Assembly: GCA_947648495.1 (NCBI GenBank)
Contig: CANSOA010000003.1
Span: forward strand, 141,256-205,255
DNA: 64,000 nt
Direction of reading: 5' to 3'
DNA from: an uncultured Clostridium sp.
GTDB lineage: Bacteria; Bacillota; Clostridia; TANB77; CAG-508
The notes beneath the pieces are model-generated. The model was not told the DNA's origin and ran no database searches. It saw nothing but the letters and a program-made list of their open reading frames with translations. Within the stretch, counting starts at the first letter, position 1; each line of letters begins with the position of its first letter. The position numbers were made by a program, and so were the translations under genes. Shown here piece after piece: positions 855 to 53,860 of this stretch.

Positions 855-985
855 GGAATTTGGGGAAGTAGTTTGGGGGACGTTTTGGAAAAAGTTTGGG
901 GAGGCAGTTTTGGGAAACGGTTTTTTTGGGGAGGAAAGAGTTTTGAGGAGAGGTTTTTTTTGGCGGGACGGGGACAGTCTTTGTG
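855..985 (+). repeat. Degenerate TTTTGGGG-like G-rich tract ending in core GGGACGGGGACAGTCTT (core ~965-981)
   Basis: Direct reading. Same core recurs at more than 10 sites in the window. Confidence 0.8.
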
Positions 986-1039
986 AATAAAACTTTAAAA
1001 TATTTTAAAAATTAAATAAATTGAATTTTCTATTTTGTC

Positions 1040-1180
1040 TATTGGGGGAGGGCATTTGGGGGAATAGTATTTTTGGAGGAAGGAGATTTTGGGGGGAATA
1101 TTTTTGGAGGAATATTTCTGGGGGGAGAGATTTTGGGGGAAGATTTTGAGAAAGATTTTGGGGACGGGGACAGTCTTTAT
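1040..1180 (+). repeat. Second G-rich tract (multiple GGGGG runs) ending in core GGGGACGGGGACAGTCTT (1160-1178)
   Basis: Direct reading. Confidence 0.8.
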
Positions 1181-1422
1181 TAATAAAATCTAAAATATTA
1201 AAAATAAAAAATAACTTAATTAATTTTTTATTTTTAGTATTTTCAGGATAAGAACAGTTTTTCTCAAGTAAATTTCCAAAACACTTTAAAAATAAGCAAA
1301 TTTGAATTTTCACTTTTATTTTTTTGTATTCTTGTTTTGGGAATATCTTGGTAACTTGCCTTAGTTGTCTTGCAGATTTTGTTGGGAATTGTTTTGGTGT
1401 CTTAGTCTGAGTCTTGAGTCTT

Positions 1423-1477
1423 GGGGACGGGGACACTCATAAAAAATTATTTATATTAATCAAGAGTGTCCCCGTCC
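1423..1477. repeat. Inverted pair of the core: GGGGACGGGGACACTC (1423-1438) and GAGTGTCCCCGTCCC (1463-1477), 24-nt AT spacer. Predicted hairpin.
   Basis: Perfect 15-16 nt inverted repeat seen directly. Confidence 0.85.
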
Positions 1478-1640
1478 CGAAAATAAATTAAAATATAAAA
1501 TAATAATAAAAATACCCAAATTAAAAATATCTAAAAATTTAAGAAATTATAATATTGTAATTCCAATTTTTTCATGATATAATTTATAAAATAATAAAAA
1601 TAACTTAAAAACTACTAAAAACATATTTTAAGGAGATTTT

Positions 1641-50519: not shown

Positions 50520-50538
50520 TATTTTTCGTTTTCAAACA

Positions 50539-50577
50539 AAAAAGCATGATTGAATTGAGAATTCAATCATGCTTTTT
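50539..50577. terminator. Bidirectional terminator
   Basis: AAAAAGCATGATTGAATTGAGAATTCAATCATGCTTTTT. Confidence 0.7.
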
Positions 50578-50578
50578 C

Positions 50579-53545
50579 CTATCTCTCTGCCAAAGCCATC
50601 ATATCTTTTTTCAATTTGGCTAATTGCTGATCTGCCTCTTCCATTGTCTTTCCTTTCACTCCCATGTAAAACTTAATCTTTGGCTCTGTTCCAGAAGGTC
50701 GTACGCAACACCATACATCGTTTTCCATTGCGTAATATAAAACATTCGAGATTGGCAATCCTGTTTTTGCCTCTTTTCCAGTTTTTGTATCGACCATTAT
50801 TCCTGTCTTATAATCCCTTATCTCAAGCACTTTATAACCACCAATTTCTTTTGGGGGATTACTTCTTATCGCATCCATAATTTCCTTAATTTTGACCGCT
50901 CCATCAGCACCTTTTAACGTAATCATTACGGTTTCTTCTTTATAAAATCCATATTTCCTATAAATATTTAACATCTGATCCCATAAAGTCAAACCTTGCT
51001 TTTTATAAAATGCTGCAGCTTCACAAAGCATCATAACCGCTGTAATTCCGTCTTTATCCCTTGCGTGTGTTCCAACCAAACAGCCATAACTTTCCTCAAA
51101 TCCAAAAACATATTCATGTTTTCCTGTTTCTTCAAAATTTCTAATTTGCTCACCGATAAACTTGAAACCAGTAAGTGTTTCTACAAAATGCATACCATAT
51201 TCTCTTGCAATCGCGCCTGCCAAATTTGAGGAAACTATCGTTGATACAAAAGCTGGATTTTTCGGCATCAAATTTTTCTCTTTTCTTTGTGATAACACAT
51301 ATTCCGCAATTAGCAATGCTGACATATTTCCTGAAAAAGGAATATATTCTCCTGTTTTTGAATCTTTTGAAAATACCCCTAATCGATCCGCATCTGGATC
51401 AGTTGCTAGTACAACATCTGCATTTACTTTTTTAGCCAATTTTAATGCCAATGCAAATGCTTTCACATCTTCTGGATTTGGATACTCTACGGTTGGAAAA
51501 TTCCCATTTGGCAATTCCTGTTCTGGAACCACAAATACGTTTGTAAATCCTAATTCCGACAAAACTCTTTGTACTGGCTTATTTCCTGTTCCATGCAAAG
51601 GCGTATAAACGATATTTAAATCTTTTTCCACTTCTTTGATAATTTCTGAATTTAAAACCTGTTTTTTTATAGCATTCAAATACAATTTATCCATTGCACT
51701 TCCTATAATATTGTACAATCCAGTATTTTGAGCCTCTTCATAAGAGATTCTTTTAACCAATGAATAATCTGTTACATTATTGACTTCTTCAATAATTTCC
51801 TTATCTTTCGGTGCCACAATTTGCGCTCCATCGTCCCAATAAACTTTATATCCATTATATTCTGGTGGATTATGGCTAGCTGTAATCATAATTCCTGCTG
51901 TACATCCAAGCTCCCTTACAGCAAATGACAATTCTGGCACAGGCTTAATTTCGTCGAAAATATATGTTTTAATTCCATTGGCATTTAAACATAACGCTGT
52001 CTCAATCGCAAATTCTTTTGACATTCTTCTAGAATCATACGAAATTGCAACACCTTTACTTTCGCTACCTTCTCTTAAAATAAAATTTGCCAAACCTTGT
52101 GTAGCTTTTGTAACCGTATAGACATTCATTCGATTAGTACCATTGCCGATTACACCTCTTAAACCTGCTGTTCCAAATTCCAAGTCTTTGTAAAATCGAT
52201 CTTTGATTTCCTCTTCGTCACCAGCAATTAATAATAATTCATGACGTGTTTCTTCGTCAAAAGCTGGATTTGTGCACCATTGACTATATTTTTTCATATA
52301 ATTTAATTTTGAGAAAAAGTCCGTATACAATTTTCTCGCTGTTTCTGGACTATCCACACCTTCCGCATTTTTAATTGGCGCAAATTCTTCTTCTCTTTTT
52401 ACTCTTAAAATAAGCACATCATTCAACATTTCAAAGGCATCAAAAATAAACATTTCAAATTTATACGCATTTGGTTTATCACTTACAATTAATTTTCCAT
52501 CTTTGTCGATATAATTCGCCTTTTTTACAGCGGTATGATAAGGTAATTTCAAATTTGTGACTTTTTCTAAAGCTTTCATATTAAACAATTGCATAATTAC
52601 ATTGGAATCTCCATAAACCAAAGAACCATAGTCATCTCTCATATTAGCCATTTCACTTGATATTTCAGTATATTCAATAACACCAACTCTTCCATTTTTC
52701 TTACAAATAACACCAACTTTTTCTTTTGGGTCAATTTTTTCAACTGATTTTACTGCACTATAAACTTTATTCGAAATTGCCATTCCAATTAACAATGGGT
52801 CAACTAAATTAGCCAAAATATTATCCACACCACTTACAAAAATCCATTCTACGCCATTTTCCTTCATTTCATTAATCACATTACTTCTTTCCATTGATTG
52901 AAGTGTTCCACCATGACCATTTGCCGCTTCTTTAATGCCTCCATTTTCATTTAGCAATATTTTCCCATCCAAATCAAGCATTGGTAATTGTCCTTGTTTA
53001 AAGAAATGCACCGCTTCTTTTGGATAACCAAAATAATTGTGTTCCTCAAAAAATTGAATAGTTTGATCATTATTTTCTTGACTTGTCATAATATACCAAG
53101 GAATAATAGCTTCATATTTAAACATCGCTTTTTTGATGCCTTCGCACAAAAGTTCAAAAATTGATTTATGCGAATCTAAGCCTAAATCATACGTACCTTT
53201 TGGACCCTTATGACCCAATCTTGTGCCTTGACCACCAGCCATTGTAACAACTGCATATTTTCCTTTTTTGATGGCTTCAATTCCTTTTTGCTCATAGATA
53301 TTTCTTTCGGCTGTCGTTAATTTAGATTTTTCTATATAATCTACAGGCTCAATTACTTCCTTTTTTAAATTATCATTTTTATTTACATTTTTATACAAAT
53401 GATCCATTAATTGAAAATCAATATTTTCAACTTTATTTAATAATTCATTTTGCTCTTTCTCATTCATTTTGTTGTAGAACATTAATAAATGTTCTTGTCC
53501 ATATTTTTCTAATTTGCTTTTTATTTCTGCAAGTTTATCCCCCAT
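50579..53545 (-). CDS. Fusion: N-terminal UDP-sugar pyrophosphorylase (UAP/UDPGP family) + C-terminal alpha-D-phosphohexomutase (PGM/PMM)
   Basis: aa ~95-120 VVTMAGGQGTRLGHKGPKG (UDPGP). aa ~450 onward FGTAGLRG...ITASHNPPEYNGYKVY...FGFEESYG (phosphohexomutase). Confidence 0.75.
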   Translation of the reverse strand: MGDKLAEIKSKLEKYGQEHLLMFYNKMNEKEQNELLNKVENIDFQLMDHLYKNVNKNDNLKKEVIEPVDYIEKSKLTTAERNIYEQKGIEAIKKGKYAVVTMAGGQGTRLGHKGPKGTYDLGLDSHKSIFELLCEGIKKAMFKYEAIIPWYIMTSQENNDQTIQFFEEHNYFGYPKEAVHFFKQGQLPMLDLDGKILLNENGGIKEAANGHGGTLQSMERSNVINEMKENGVEWIFVSGVDNILANLVDPLLIGMAISNKVYSAVKSVEKIDPKEKVGVICKKNGRVGVIEYTEISSEMANMRDDYGSLVYGDSNVIMQLFNMKALEKVTNLKLPYHTAVKKANYIDKDGKLIVSDKPNAYKFEMFIFDAFEMLNDVLILRVKREEEFAPIKNAEGVDSPETARKLYTDFFSKLNYMKKYSQWCTNPAFDEETRHELLLIAGDEEEIKDRFYKDLEFGTAGLRGVIGNGTNRMNVYTVTKATQGLANFILREGSESKGVAISYDSRRMSKEFAIETALCLNANGIKTYIFDEIKPVPELSFAVRELGCTAGIMITASHNPPEYNGYKVYWDDGAQIVAPKDKEIIEEVNNVTDYSLVKRISYEEAQNTGLYNIIGSAMDKLYLNAIKKQVLNSEIIKEVEKDLNIVYTPLHGTGNKPVQRVLSELGFTNVFVVPEQELPNGNFPTVEYPNPEDVKAFALALKLAKKVNADVVLATDPDADRLGVFSKDSKTGEYIPFSGNMSALLIAEYVLSQRKEKNLMPKNPAFVSTIVSSNLAGAIAREYGMHFVETLTGFKFIGEQIRNFEETGKHEYVFGFEESYGCLVGTHARDKDGITAVMMLCEAAAFYKKQGLTLWDQMLNIYRKYGFYKEETVMITLKGADGAVKIKEIMDAIRSNPPKEIGGYKVLEIRDYKTGIMVDTKTGKEAKTGLPISNVLYYAMENDVWCCVRPSGTEPKIKFYMGVKGKTMEEADQQLAKLKKDMMALAER

Positions 53546-53704
53546 TTAAAAATAGTCTCCTTTCAAAAATATCCTTTATCATATTATCAAATTTCTTTAC
53601 ATTCTATACCATTTTATTTTATAAGTCAACAGTCGTCTTAGGTCATAAATTAAAAAATATAGGAATTATTTAATTTTGAGACATTTTTTTAGAATTATGA
53701 ATTT

Positions 53705-53860
53705 GGGGACGGGGACACTCTTGGAAATTTATTTTCTCCTTTTTTCTCCCATTTACTCAATTTTGCTATACAAAACATAACAAGAGTGTCCCCGTCCCCT
53801 TTTTTTCTCTCCTCTTTCTCCCCCCCATTTCCTTCCTTTTCTCTTTTTCCCTTTTCTCTA
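53705..53860. repeat. Core (53705-53722), 60-nt spacer, inverted core (53783-53800), C/T-rich tract
   Basis: Direct reading. Confidence 0.8.

Follow-up and report, generated by a model that had tools for sequence, protein, structure and literature searches.

The 18-nt core repeated between the genes of the 64-kb window (the whole stretch of DNA that was analyzed) is very probably the repeat recognized by a RAYT/TIRYT-type Y1/HUH transposase whose chromosomally fixed gene is putatively single-copy, with the inverted doublets of the core being REPIN-like units mobilized in trans and the G-rich tracts beside them secondary. The transposase gene would lie outside the window, bracketed by its own cores in inverted orientation as a "REPtron/TIRtron".

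The core repeat in the window

To a scan of the 64-kb window the core, GGGGACGGGGACA[C/G]TCTT (18 nt), returned 14 matches at two or fewer mismatches, with 0 expected by chance from dinucleotide shuffles of the window. These include all 14 positions listed in an earlier reading of the sequence alone (the sequence-only reading). Position 14 is dimorphic (C/G); with both forms allowed, nine cores are perfect, four carry one mismatch and one carries two, and the window scan found no copies with 4-5 mismatches. The core is a tandem GGGGAC GGGGAC preceded by a T run; it has no internal stem and no 5′ GTAG tetranucleotide. All 14 cores are intergenic and occupy six regions, not the nine loci counted previously. 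Two of the regions lie between divergent and four between co-directional genes, one of the latter inside the dnaX-ybaB-recR operon. Convergent contexts, which had been claimed alongside these two, do not occur in the window, and its GC content is 30% and not ~28%. In the Rfam search suggested with the sequence-only reading, only tRNA and SRP RNA passed the gathering score and nothing fell on the elements at E ≤ 0.5; the elements match no curated covariance model. The exact core was found neither in the literature searched nor on plasmids.

The first two cores, core 1 (CGGGACGGGGACAGTCTT; 964-981, +) and core 2 (1160-1177, +), each follow a G-rich tract. The C-poor T(n)G(n) tract 5′ of core 1 (852-963, +; G4Hunter region 852-976, maximum 1.68) has TRF periods of 13 and 25 and varies between strains that are 99% identical; the tract 5′ of core 2 (1034-1159, +) has a G4Hunter maximum of 1.96 and TRF periods of 14, 16, and 29. 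Cores 3 (1423-1440, +) and 4 (1462-1479, −) form an inverted doublet with a 21-nt spacer (1423-1479; single-stranded DNA hairpin of −19.5 kcal/mol, z = −6.4), and a degenerate G/T-rich tract lies ahead of it at ~1330-1422. The ybaB/recR intergenic cluster (3562-3895) holds a short G tract (3562-3585), cores 5 (3586, +), 6 (3690, +, degenerate), 7 (3804, −) and 8 (3878, −), and, additional to the 14 cores, an inverted half-core (3740-3751, −). Within this cluster a 74-nt unit with an AGTCTT-type core is present twice, and strains L090 and L093 have four copies of it.

Solo core 9 (39836-39853, −) has a downstream module of ~135 nt, and the resulting unit (39700-39853, −) is 81% identical to the 48140 unit. 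The module carries a TTGACA-17-TATAAT promoter pointing away from the core. The 48140 unit (48062-48290, +) consists of a G-rich tract (48062-48139), solo core 10 (48140-48157, +) and the same promoter-bearing downstream module. A full long palindrome (49158-49440) is built on cores 11 (49280, +) and 12 (49357, −) with a 59-nt spacer, a G tract at 49158-49279 and a C-rich mirror tract from 49375 to ~49440; the core pair folds at −21.7 kcal/mol and 321 nt of the palindrome at −53.5 kcal/mol. The last doublet (53705-53860; cores 13 at 53705, +, and 14 at 53782, −; 59-nt spacer) folds at −24.4 kcal/mol (z = −8.4), and its C/T-rich tract (53800-53860) is the minus-strand G/A-rich 5′ flank of core 14. 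The spacers of the 49280 and 53705 doublets belong to the same family, and the site orthologous to the latter carries a doublet in related species too.

Folding of these three inverted pairs, a check that the sequence-only reading had proposed, gave strong single-stranded hairpins throughout (z = −5 to −8), while a stretch with only same-orientation cores did not fold (−1.4 kcal/mol, z = +1.6). Of the five inverted core pairs that form hairpins within positions 700-4200 (1423/1462, 3690/3740, 3690/3804, 3586/3804, and 3586/3878), a terminator scan called none, which agrees with the earlier statement that the elements are not simply terminators; termination is probably not their primary character. 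Among other genomes some short-spacer doublets look terminator-like, with flanking T runs (L037, L024, and L052).

Distribution in relatives and copying of doublets

The enrichment extends well past the window: further contigs of the species carry the core, as do at least three related species. An exact 17-mer has at least 51, 21, and 5 matches in the CANEDP01, CAOJUE01, and CAOJGX01 MAGs, respectively, with +/− pairs predominating among the matches listed. Cores are nearly invariant while spacers diverge, though loci from other genomes were retrieved by exact match to the 17-mer and conservation figures there are inflated.

Doublets act as units of copying: the L034 and L055 elements share 217 nt at 99.5% identity between unrelated flanks, and the copied unit stops within 4-5 nt of the outer edges of its cores. 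A 205-bp doublet family occupies seven loci of one MAG; a second family, of ~95 bp, includes the window doublets at 49280 and 53705 and extends to four other genomes. Doublets differ in presence and absence between species (L048 versus L072), and orthologous sites in three species keep doublets with different spacers. Neither a clean empty site nor a target-site duplication could be identified: one flank is a T run and the opposite flank an A run, inverted and not direct. Strains differ in the copy number of core units, and a flipped orientation was not seen among them. The elements are a dispersed intergenic repeat family, as the earlier proposal of a REP/MITE-type element had it.

The transposase gene and its protein

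The only gene repeatedly bracketed by cores codes for a Y1/HUH protein. On seven independent contigs (L049, L085, L086/L087, L088, L089, and L095) a 170-aa Y1/HUH transposase gene has cores inverted on either side; for the gene on L084 the core is downstream only. Two forward and two reverse cores flank the gene on L049 (CANEDP), and L088 has a tandem direct core array. The homologues from five other samples are 58-76% identical to the protein of the window species and core-flanked in inverted orientation, L084 again excepted. The invariant part of the core is GGGGACGGGGAC, and the tail follows the protein lineage, being GGACTT with P0008 and AGTCCT with P0014.

No transposase gene is encoded within the 64-kb window. 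Contig L091, 99.99% identical to window positions 1060-13436, comes from assembly ERZ14425195 at a coverage of 7.9. Contig L095, from the same assembly at a coverage of 8.4, has an intact transposase gene, identical to P0004, between cores at 9708+ and 9758+ and cores at 10524− and 10574−, with a G tract and a C tract further out. What links the gene to the window species is one shared assembly, comparable coverage and G tracts of like style, across two separate contigs.

The gene adjoins minC-PBP2-mreD-mreC, a synteny kept in five contigs. Between species the transposase is 59-75% identical versus 80-85% for the neighboring MinC and PBP2. A plasmid search gave no close homologue of the transposase, no tnpB is present at its locus, and no DDE transposase lies beside cores in ~100 loci. 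The gene appears to be chromosomally fixed and vertically inherited, and the transposase to be domesticated.

The 170-aa protein of L049 matches Pfam Y1_Tnp at 30.9 bits (cut-off 23). Its top NCBIfam match is REP_Tyr_transpos, which the transposase reaches at 61.3 bits, below the cut-off of 80; P0004 has no match to NCBIfam transpos_IS200. Invariant in 23-30 homologues are H60-x-H62 and Y120 within YIHxNP. The sole match in a PDB profile search was TnpAREP (4ER8, E = 4.7e-4), and the AF2 model (pLDDT 89) has E. coli TnpAREP (4ER8) as its top Foldseek match, with TM scores of 0.69/0.71 and of 0.49-0.52 against the IS608 and ISDra2 transposases. The protein carries an HUH motif and the catalytic Tyr, and its modeled fold is of RAYT type. 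A helix-turn-helix was not matched in the 170-aa clade, the protein stopping ~30 residues past the YSSY motif; weak matches were confined to relatives of 233-261 aa, and relatives at 42-52% identity have an HTH-like C-terminal extension.

Inverted doublets (core, AT-rich spacer, inverted core; ~55-210 bp) would then be non-autonomous REPIN-like units that form hairpins when single-stranded, with the 18-bp core as the stem, and the putative transposase would act in trans on the cores, copying or moving doublets to intergenic sites. Decay, internal deletion, unequal recombination or slippage may have given rise to solo cores, tandem arrays and half-cores.

G-rich tracts

A G-rich, C-poor T(n)G(n) tract lies on the 5′ side of about eight of the 14 window cores. 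Seven of the eight regions in the window with a G4Hunter score of at least 1.2 abut cores, and G4Hunter found no G tract in intergenic DNA of the window without a core. The tracts score 1.3-2.2 and have 5-10 runs of G3 or longer each. In the 100 nt 5′ of cores G makes up 23.7% and C 4.6% of the bases; the corresponding 3′ values are 11.9% and 13.4%. The tracts described in the sequence-only reading are thus real but not general, and its idea of G-quadruplexes stays at a potential, given by the G4Hunter scores.

By TRF the tracts are short-period repeats. Differences between 99%-identical strains concentrate in them, and strain L092 has an 11-nt partial-core duplication immediately 5′ of core 964. 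Their sequences are unalignable across loci, and it is here that strains vary most, which points to neutral slippage products. Upstream of cores the sister species has 15.0% G versus 9.0% C, its tracts being weak or absent, and the recently copied CANEDP unit is without a tract. The tracts probably formed in situ, through slippage or a partial duplication of the core. Lying outside the cores, they would be secondary, C-free and fast-evolving, with slippage accompanied by partial duplication of the junction "T-run + GGGGAC".

Alternative explanations

We consider it unlikely that the cores are chiefly regulatory or structural sites of the host, maintained locus by locus through selection instead of being spread by transposition, with an incidental association to the transposase. 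Such sites could be bound as operators by a DNA-binding protein, serve the nucleoid or gyrase, or form hairpins that stabilize or terminate an mRNA. Cores are either intact or absent, with no decayed copies, while spacers diverge, doublets persist at orthologous sites in three species, and many copies directly follow a terminator hairpin or precede an outward-facing −35 box by a few bases, all as host sites would. The short-spacer doublets with T runs also resemble bidirectional terminators, and E. coli REPs have known regulatory or structural host roles (PMC6006769). However, host selection leaves three things unexplained: the bracketing of the transposase gene by cores in all genomes examined, the match between core tail and transposase lineage, and the near-identical 205-bp units at unrelated loci; moreover the 700-4200 terminator scan called no element, and the contexts are mixed (divergent promoters, within an operon, after genes). 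A host role is compatible with recognition by the transposase as a secondary, exapted one, and the elements may have effects on neighboring genes. It is a good deal less probable that the G-rich tracts are functional G-quadruplex modules (acting, for example, as pause sites in replication or transcription or as hot spots of recombination) that the cores merely mark. Such modules would suit G4Hunter scores this high and this many G runs at 30% GC, the C-free strand, and the tracts that flank the transposase locus as well. Only about eight of the 14 window cores have a tract, however, and the weak or absent tracts of the sister species, the tract-free copied unit of CANEDP and the strain-variable, unalignable sequences are likewise at odds with such modules.

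The layout of the doublets, 55-210 bp with 18-bp terminal inverted repeats and an AT-rich non-coding interior, is that of a textbook MITE, and the copied units end at the outer cores to within 4-5 nt. Nevertheless, we regard ordinary MITEs of an unseen DDE-type IS as very improbable. Besides the missing DDE transposase in ~100 loci, the gene that the cores do bracket is that of a Y1/HUH protein, no consistent target-site duplication accompanies the inverted T-run and A-run flanks, and tandem direct arrays and the 2+2 layout around the gene are typical of REPtrons and not of IS ends. Like the MITEs RUP, NEMIS/Correia, ERIC, and BOX, the elements are small, non-coding, hairpin-forming and intergenic, have terminal inverted repeats and often lie beside promoters and terminators; they differ in the enzyme class, the lack of a DDE parent IS and the lack of target-site duplication. 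Invertons flipped by a site-specific recombinase are scarcely credible. The same inverted repeat does recur at many loci, and two units have a promoter beside the core, but most spacers (5-190 nt) are shorter than inversion by a recombinase requires, the promoter modules sit beside solo cores and not within pairs, no invertase is associated with the elements, and strains vary in copy number with no flipped orientation.

Comparison with known systems

The TIRs that flank RAYT-like genes share GGGGWSAS and can form dispersed dimer families (Di Nocera et al. 2013, PMC3733652), a consensus of TIRtron repeats also given by Quentin et al. 2018 (PMC6006769). Positions 7-14 of the core are GGGGACAC or GGGGACAG, both of which fit GGGGWSAS. 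TIRtrons/TIRYT (PMC3733652) are equated with TnpA_Y1 subclass 2.1 (PMC6006769) and with RAYT Group 1 (PMC5581495), which is reported in Clostridia (Bertels et al. 2017, PMC5581495). As in these systems, a RAYT-like Y1/HUH gene lies between non-palindromic inverted repeats with GGGGWSAS that are also dispersed as singles, dimers and clusters. Unlike all described members of TIRYT/subclass 2.1, the 170-aa clade lacks an HTH extension (Bac_DnaA_C / HTH_23 / HTH_28-like). The repeats are dense here, at 14 per 64 kb, whereas Bertels et al. (2017, PMC5581495) counted ~12 flanking 16-mers per replicon for Group 1 and Quentin et al. (2018, PMC6006769) saw no REP-like sequences around subclass 2.1 genes. 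The tandem GGGGAC GGGGAC of the core and the outer T(n)G(n) tracts also set the family apart from TIRtrons as described.

With the Proteobacterial REP/BIME and REPIN-RAYT systems (E. coli TnpAREP 4ER8; SBW25 REPINs, PMC3116915) the family shares a syntenic transposase gene flanked by its own repeats, and a short sequence strongly over-represented outside genes (14 versus 0 expected). Also shared are a dispersed intergenic population, mainly of hairpin-forming inverted doublets copied as units, the co-variation of repeat and transposase, and TnpAREP as the top structural match. The differences are a single repeat unit that is no imperfect palindrome and lacks a 5′ GTAG, a protein under the NCBIfam REP_Tyr_transpos cut-off, and a low-GC Firmicute host. 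A core that is neither palindromic nor begins with GTAG, as classical REPs do, counts against the preferred reading. So do the missing transposase gene in the window, the lack of a clean empty site or target-site duplication, tandem direct arrays such as that of L088, which cannot form local hairpins, and nearly invariant cores with diverging spacers, which could reflect selection for a host function instead of recognition by the transposase.

The IS200/IS605 elements IS608 and ISDra2 have the same catalytic fold with HUH and Tyr motifs, and cleavage and rejoining of single-stranded DNA is the likely mechanism. They differ in having multiple mobile copies where this gene has one conserved chromosomal site without tnpB, and the fold similarity is lower (TM ~0.5), with no NCBIfam IS200 match for P0004. 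The fixed syntenic location, the lack of tnpB and the lack of a transpos_IS200 match rule against an autonomous IS200/IS605 element.

The sequence-only reading recognized no described family and had looked to a known IS/MITE terminal inverted repeat as the competing identity. The exact core is indeed undescribed, yet the kind of element is not new, as shown by the RAYT-type flanking repeats and GGGGWSAS; in spirit the competing identity holds, since a transposase gene has the core as its inverted repeat, but of a family previously undescribed. Bracketing of the transposase gene, doublets copied as units and GGGGWSAS therefore identify a REPIN/TIRtron-type population in uncultured low-GC gut Clostridia. 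With the core as the probable recognition repeat of a REP-associated tyrosine transposase, it would be a new family within a known class of small mobile DNA.

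Results

Core copies and hairpins in the window

To count the copies of the 18-nt core, we searched the window for GGGGACGGGGACACTCTT with up to three mismatches, using 100 dinucleotide-preserving shuffles as a control. The search returned 14 sites in the window and none in the shuffles, and they are precisely the 14 sites listed in the sequence-only reading. Position 14 of the core is a true C/G dimorphism; with both forms allowed, nine copies are perfect, four have one mismatch and one has two. Allowing four or five mismatches added no further core in the window, so copies are either intact or absent. 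An additional inverted half-core (GGGGAAACTCTT) lies at 3740-3751. Eight cores are on the plus strand and six on the minus strand, with no obvious strand bias. GC skew is negative over almost the whole of 1-64000 and the minus strand carries most of the genes, so that the window lies on a single replichore whose leading strand is the minus strand.

The cores occupy six intergenic regions, rather than the nine loci first proposed, in a window that measures 30% GC and not about 28%. The flanking genes are divergent at two regions (765-1640 and 39048-40022) and co-directional at four; the convergent context that had also been claimed was found for none. One co-directional region is a 664-nt gap within the dnaX-ybaB-recR operon, which is normally compact and is split here at 3437-4100 by a repeat cluster between ybaB and recR. 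Core 8 directly adjoins a tandem repeat made up of A and T only (3900-3983; AAATTAATTAAATACA x 5, 86% matches).

Three inverted core pairs were folded as single-stranded DNA. The pair at 1423/1462 has a 21-nt spacer and a predicted fold of -19.5 kcal/mol, and those at 49280/49357 and 53705/53782 each have a 59-nt spacer, with folds of -21.7 and -24.4 kcal/mol, respectively. Their z-scores range from -5 to -8. A 321-nt palindrome around 49300 is predicted to fold at -53.5 kcal/mol. No Rfam match was found on the elements in the window.

Distribution and copying of doublets

An exact 17-mer scan was made of one genome per prokaryotic species. Among the matches listed, the 17-mer recurs many times, mostly as plus/minus pairs 20-190 nt apart, in three uncultured low-GC Clostridia MAGs (CANEDP01, CAOJUE01 and CAOJGX01), while high-GC genomes gave single, chance-like matches only. 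The core is thus repeated in related MAGs beyond the window. Genes shared between the window and these MAGs are 76-84% identical, so the window represents a related but different species. The 18 core positions hardly vary over 113 copies, a conservation inflated by the choice of foreign loci by exact match. A T run precedes these cores and A-rich sequence follows them.

The spacers form families that recur at unrelated loci. One family, with a unit of about 95 bp, includes both window doublets with 59-nt spacers as well as elements from four other genomes, and a 205-bp unit with an internal half-core was found in one MAG at seven loci. For two 205-bp units, located on different contigs within unrelated flanks, identity reaches 99.5% over 217 nt and stops 4-5 nt beyond the cores, indicating that the doublet was copied as a unit and recently. 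At one orthologous intergenic region a doublet is present in CANEDP and absent in CAOJUE. Between strains 99% identical, the ybaB-recR cluster holds two 74-nt units (the window and contig L091) or four (strains L090 and L093), and so is visibly still changing. The ybaB-recR gap measures 807 nt in L090 and L093.

We also looked for a clean empty site and for target-site duplications. At window position 35472, compared with loci L058 and L012, the neighbouring gene is a different one, and homology therefore ends precisely at the boundary of the element. Locus L048 against L072 gave presence versus absence, with flanks too diverged to define the insertion point. No consistent direct repeat was found at the element flanks.

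A transposase gene bracketed by cores

A 170-aa ORF at L049, a CANEDP locus, lies between cores, two of them forward and two reverse. It scores 30.9 bits on Pfam Y1_Tnp, above the cut-off of 23; its best NCBIfam model is 'REP-associated tyrosine transposase' (RAYT), at 55.7 bits, below the cut-off of 80. A protein search for homologues gave a tight clade of about 170 aa and a wider set of 233-261 aa at 42-52% identity, some of the latter labelled RayT by JGI. Contigs with members of the ~170-aa clade were retrieved from five further samples. In all five the gene is flanked by cores, forward upstream and reverse downstream, with only the downstream copy in contig L084. Taken together, we judge the association between core and transposase to be likely, with good confidence.

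Among the transposase loci the core part GGGGACGGGGAC is constant and the tail varies with the protein lineage, being ACTCTT or AGTCTT in most, GGACTT with protein P0008 and AGTCCT with P0014. At the P0014 locus (L088) the gene sits between arrays (5706-5921 and 6553-6738) of six forward and five reverse 39-40-nt units, each a core plus a near-identical AT linker. One L088 unit holds three GGGGAC hexamers, not two. A CRISPR-like reading of these arrays was rejected since the 'spacers' are near-identical and the arrays are inverted around the gene.

The gene has a constant site, between a giant SdrD_B-repeat protein gene and minC-PBP2-mreD-mreC-radC. Between species the transposase is 59-75% identical and the adjacent MinC and PBP2 are 80-85%. 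The closest plasmid-borne homologue is 35% identical and nothing on the elements matches plasmid DNA, arguing against a plasmid origin of either. With its fixed site, these levels of identity and so distant a plasmid homologue, the gene has the profile of a resident, apparently vertically inherited gene and not of a hopping insertion sequence.

A tblastn search of the window found neither the transposase nor minC or PBP2. Within assembly ERZ14425195, contig L091 (coverage 7.9) matches window 1060-13436 at 99.99% identity. The syntenic site lies on L095 (coverage 8.4), another contig of this assembly, and holds an intact transposase gene whose product is identical to P0004, the protein of the window's species; P0123, a cluster-mate of P0004, leads to the same ORF. 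Cores lie upstream of the gene at 9708 and 9758 (plus) and downstream at 10524 and 10574 (minus). Beyond the cores, a G-rich tract on the left is mirrored by a C-rich one on the right, an architecture equal to that of window 49158-49440 with a gene in the middle. The link between the window's species and the transposase is by assembly, coverage and tract style, without physical contiguity.

E. coli TnpAREP is the best PDB match of the transposase

Residues H60-x-H62 and Y120, the latter in the motif YIHxNP(V/I)KA, are invariant in 23-30 homologues. A single-sequence phmmer search of the PDB gave no match. With the family profile one PDB sequence was found, E. coli TnpAREP (4ER8, E = 4.7e-4), in an alignment spanning the HUH and Tyr motifs. 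The protein of the window's species was also modelled with AlphaFold2 (pLDDT 89, pTM 0.85), and the best structural match of the model is again 4ER8, described as a 'REP-associated tyrosine transposase bound to a REP hairpin' (TM 0.69/0.71, rmsd 3.3 Å, 150 columns). The IS608 and ISDra2 transposases fit the model less well (TM 0.49-0.52).

No helix-turn-helix (HTH) was detected in the 170-aa clade, weak HTH hits being limited to the longer relatives. Genes for the latter are wedged between housekeeping genes and flanked by inverted repeats containing GGGACG, as for the HTH-bearing P0021 and P0063 (256-257 aa), with repeats at 7876-7937 and 8753-8804 of contig L098 and at 293-323 and 1142-1182 of L096. 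That such repeats flank the longer relatives too suggests the GGGACG motif is ancient in this RAYT branch. The P0021 and P0063 genes are 50-90 nt from glyS or polA. The P0063 repeat is itself a REP-like palindrome.

G-rich tracts beside the cores

The G-rich flanking tracts described in the sequence-only reading are real, though present at only about eight of the 14 cores. Seven of the eight window regions with a G4Hunter score of at least 1.2 abut a core, and the 100 nt 5' of cores are 23.7% G and 4.6% C. By TRF, the tracts are degenerate short-period repeats of 10-16 and 25-29 nt, in which a T run is followed by GGGG(A), matching the element's own 5' boundary. Across 765-1640, nearly all differences among four strains 99% identical fall within the tracts, as G/A substitutions in G runs and 1-nt indels, and the AT-rich 220-nt stretch at 1180-1400 is invariant. 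In strain contig L092, core 964 is immediately preceded on its 5' side by an 11-nt insertion (TGACGGGACGG), a partial core duplicate. On the complement of the G tracts, 1005-1436 (minus strand) forms a 143-aa ORF with a GTG start; a gene caller gives a 144-aa protein for it in strain L090, with no Pfam hit. It is very probably spurious, created by the stop-poor repeat.

G4Hunter found no G tract in window intergenic DNA lacking a core, evidence against their being a preferred target. In the sister species, sequence upstream of cores is 15.0% G and 9.0% C, so tracts are weak there, and the recently copied CANEDP unit is without one. On the best reading, to which we give roughly even odds, the tracts are secondary products of slippage or partial duplication at the element boundary, and this activity is greater in the window's lineage. 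A functional role, or an active part of the transposase in making the tracts, is improbable in our view. As an integral outer arm that forms a G-quadruplex, a tract could, for example, keep DNA single-stranded or stall a fork, and so let an HTH-less RAYT act on a core that is not a palindrome. Another possibility is that the tracts are written by the transposase, through repeated cutting and rejoining at the 'T-run | GGGGAC' boundary, which would amount to template-slippage, telomere-like growth of a bacterial repeat. If true, either would represent a way for RAYTs to recognize substrates, or for repeats to grow, that has not been described in REP, REPIN or TIRtron systems.

A putative promoter module and other features of the window

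The 'solo' cores at 39836 and 48140 are not solo. With the modules next to them, at 39700-39835 (minus) and 48158-48290 (plus), they are 81% identical over about 170 nt and share a predicted canonical TTGACA-17-TATAAT promoter directed away from the core. At 39730-39700 the promoter is followed by a short hairpin and T run; at 48257 the predicted transcript would enter the end of the 48322-49053 gene antisense. Among all the loci collected, the module was found in the window's species only, and it may be a repeat-borne mobile promoter or small RNA. In the ~650 nt downstream of the first promoter (39048-39700), no ORF exceeds 43 aa and nothing matches Rfam. Their composition is more complex than that of the surrounding AT-rich spacer, and they could belong to a decayed gene, a leader or a non-coding RNA missing from the annotation.

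Two other tandem repeats were noted. A 132-nt unit repeated 2.5 times (90% matches) at 29080-29414 is inside the 571-aa ORF 28203-29918 and hence encodes a 44-residue repeat in frame. The 54782-55399 gene is closely preceded, at 54658-54743, by an 11-nt (TTTTTGTAATA x 4) and a 35-nt tandem repeat, which may be binding sites for a regulator.

Discussion

The elements are best compared with the TIRtrons of Di Nocera et al. (PMC3733652), in which RAYT-like 'TIRYT' genes lie between non-palindromic inverted repeats, many with GGGGWSAS; some of these repeats are moderately abundant as dispersed singles, dimers and clusters. Core positions 7-14 (GGGGACAC or GGGGACAG) fit GGGGWSAS. The family therefore shares with REPIN-RAYT and TIRtron systems this motif, the transposase association and the doublet structure. 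Unlike classical REPs it has no palindromic unit with a 5' GTAG. Quentin et al. equate TIRYTs with their subclass 2.1 and with RAYT Group 1 of Bertels et al.; they report a C-terminal HTH extension on subclass 2.1 proteins and no REP-like sequences near the genes (PMC6006769). The 170-aa clade differs in lacking that extension. Group 1 occurs in Clostridia, and its flanking 16-mers reach only about 12 copies genome-wide (Bertels et al., PMC5581495).

Other explanations fit the elements less well. A terminator scan of 700-4200 called none of the elements there and led us to reject termination as their primary explanation. An inverton reading was rejected since the spacers are mostly too short and no orientation variants occur between strains. 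A phage origin is opposed by the scan of 2.9 million viral contigs, which gave only four single, isolated matches. The reverse strand of the core reads CCCCGTCCCC, for which reason the CGTC-tagged REP superfamily was considered, but it was rejected since its members are palindromes with 8-9-bp stems and no associated transposase. The 'REP/MITE-like' interpretation of the sequence-only reading was right in kind, these being RAYT/TIRYT-associated repeats. Its claim of an undescribed family stands insofar as the exact core was not found in the prokaryotic literature searched, and does not extend to a new kind of system. The family is an undescribed member of the RAYT/TIRYT-associated repeat class in uncultured low-GC Clostridia. 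It is unusual in having a core that is a non-palindromic tandem hexamer, a transposase with no HTH and T(n)G(n) fringes that evolve fast.

The Y1/HUH proteins of IS200/IS605 and RAYTs cleave and rejoin single-stranded DNA beside hairpins, and TnpAREP does so with REPs (PMC6006769). By analogy, the 170-aa protein would recognize the 18-nt core, its substrate most plausibly being the hairpin stem that an inverted doublet forms in single-stranded DNA, and would act in trans to move or copy doublets. Decay, internal deletion and unequal exchange could then yield solo cores, half-cores, tandem arrays and 2+2 clusters.

In the literature on the GGGGWSAS branch of RAYTs (TIRYT, subclass 2.1 or Group 1) there are few or no dispersed repeats. 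Here, a member of that branch that is short and has no HTH is associated with dense, strain-polymorphic repeats in uncultured low-GC gut Clostridia. REPIN-RAYT systems have been studied almost entirely in Proteobacteria. The present family would provide a Firmicute model for the upkeep of a repeat population by domesticated Y1 transposases, and one whose recognized unit alone is not a hairpin. It also offers an annotation rule: the 18-mer marks the elements, which account for spurious ORFs such as 1005-1436 and, in these MAGs, for breaks in assembly and for intergenic lengths that vary between strains.
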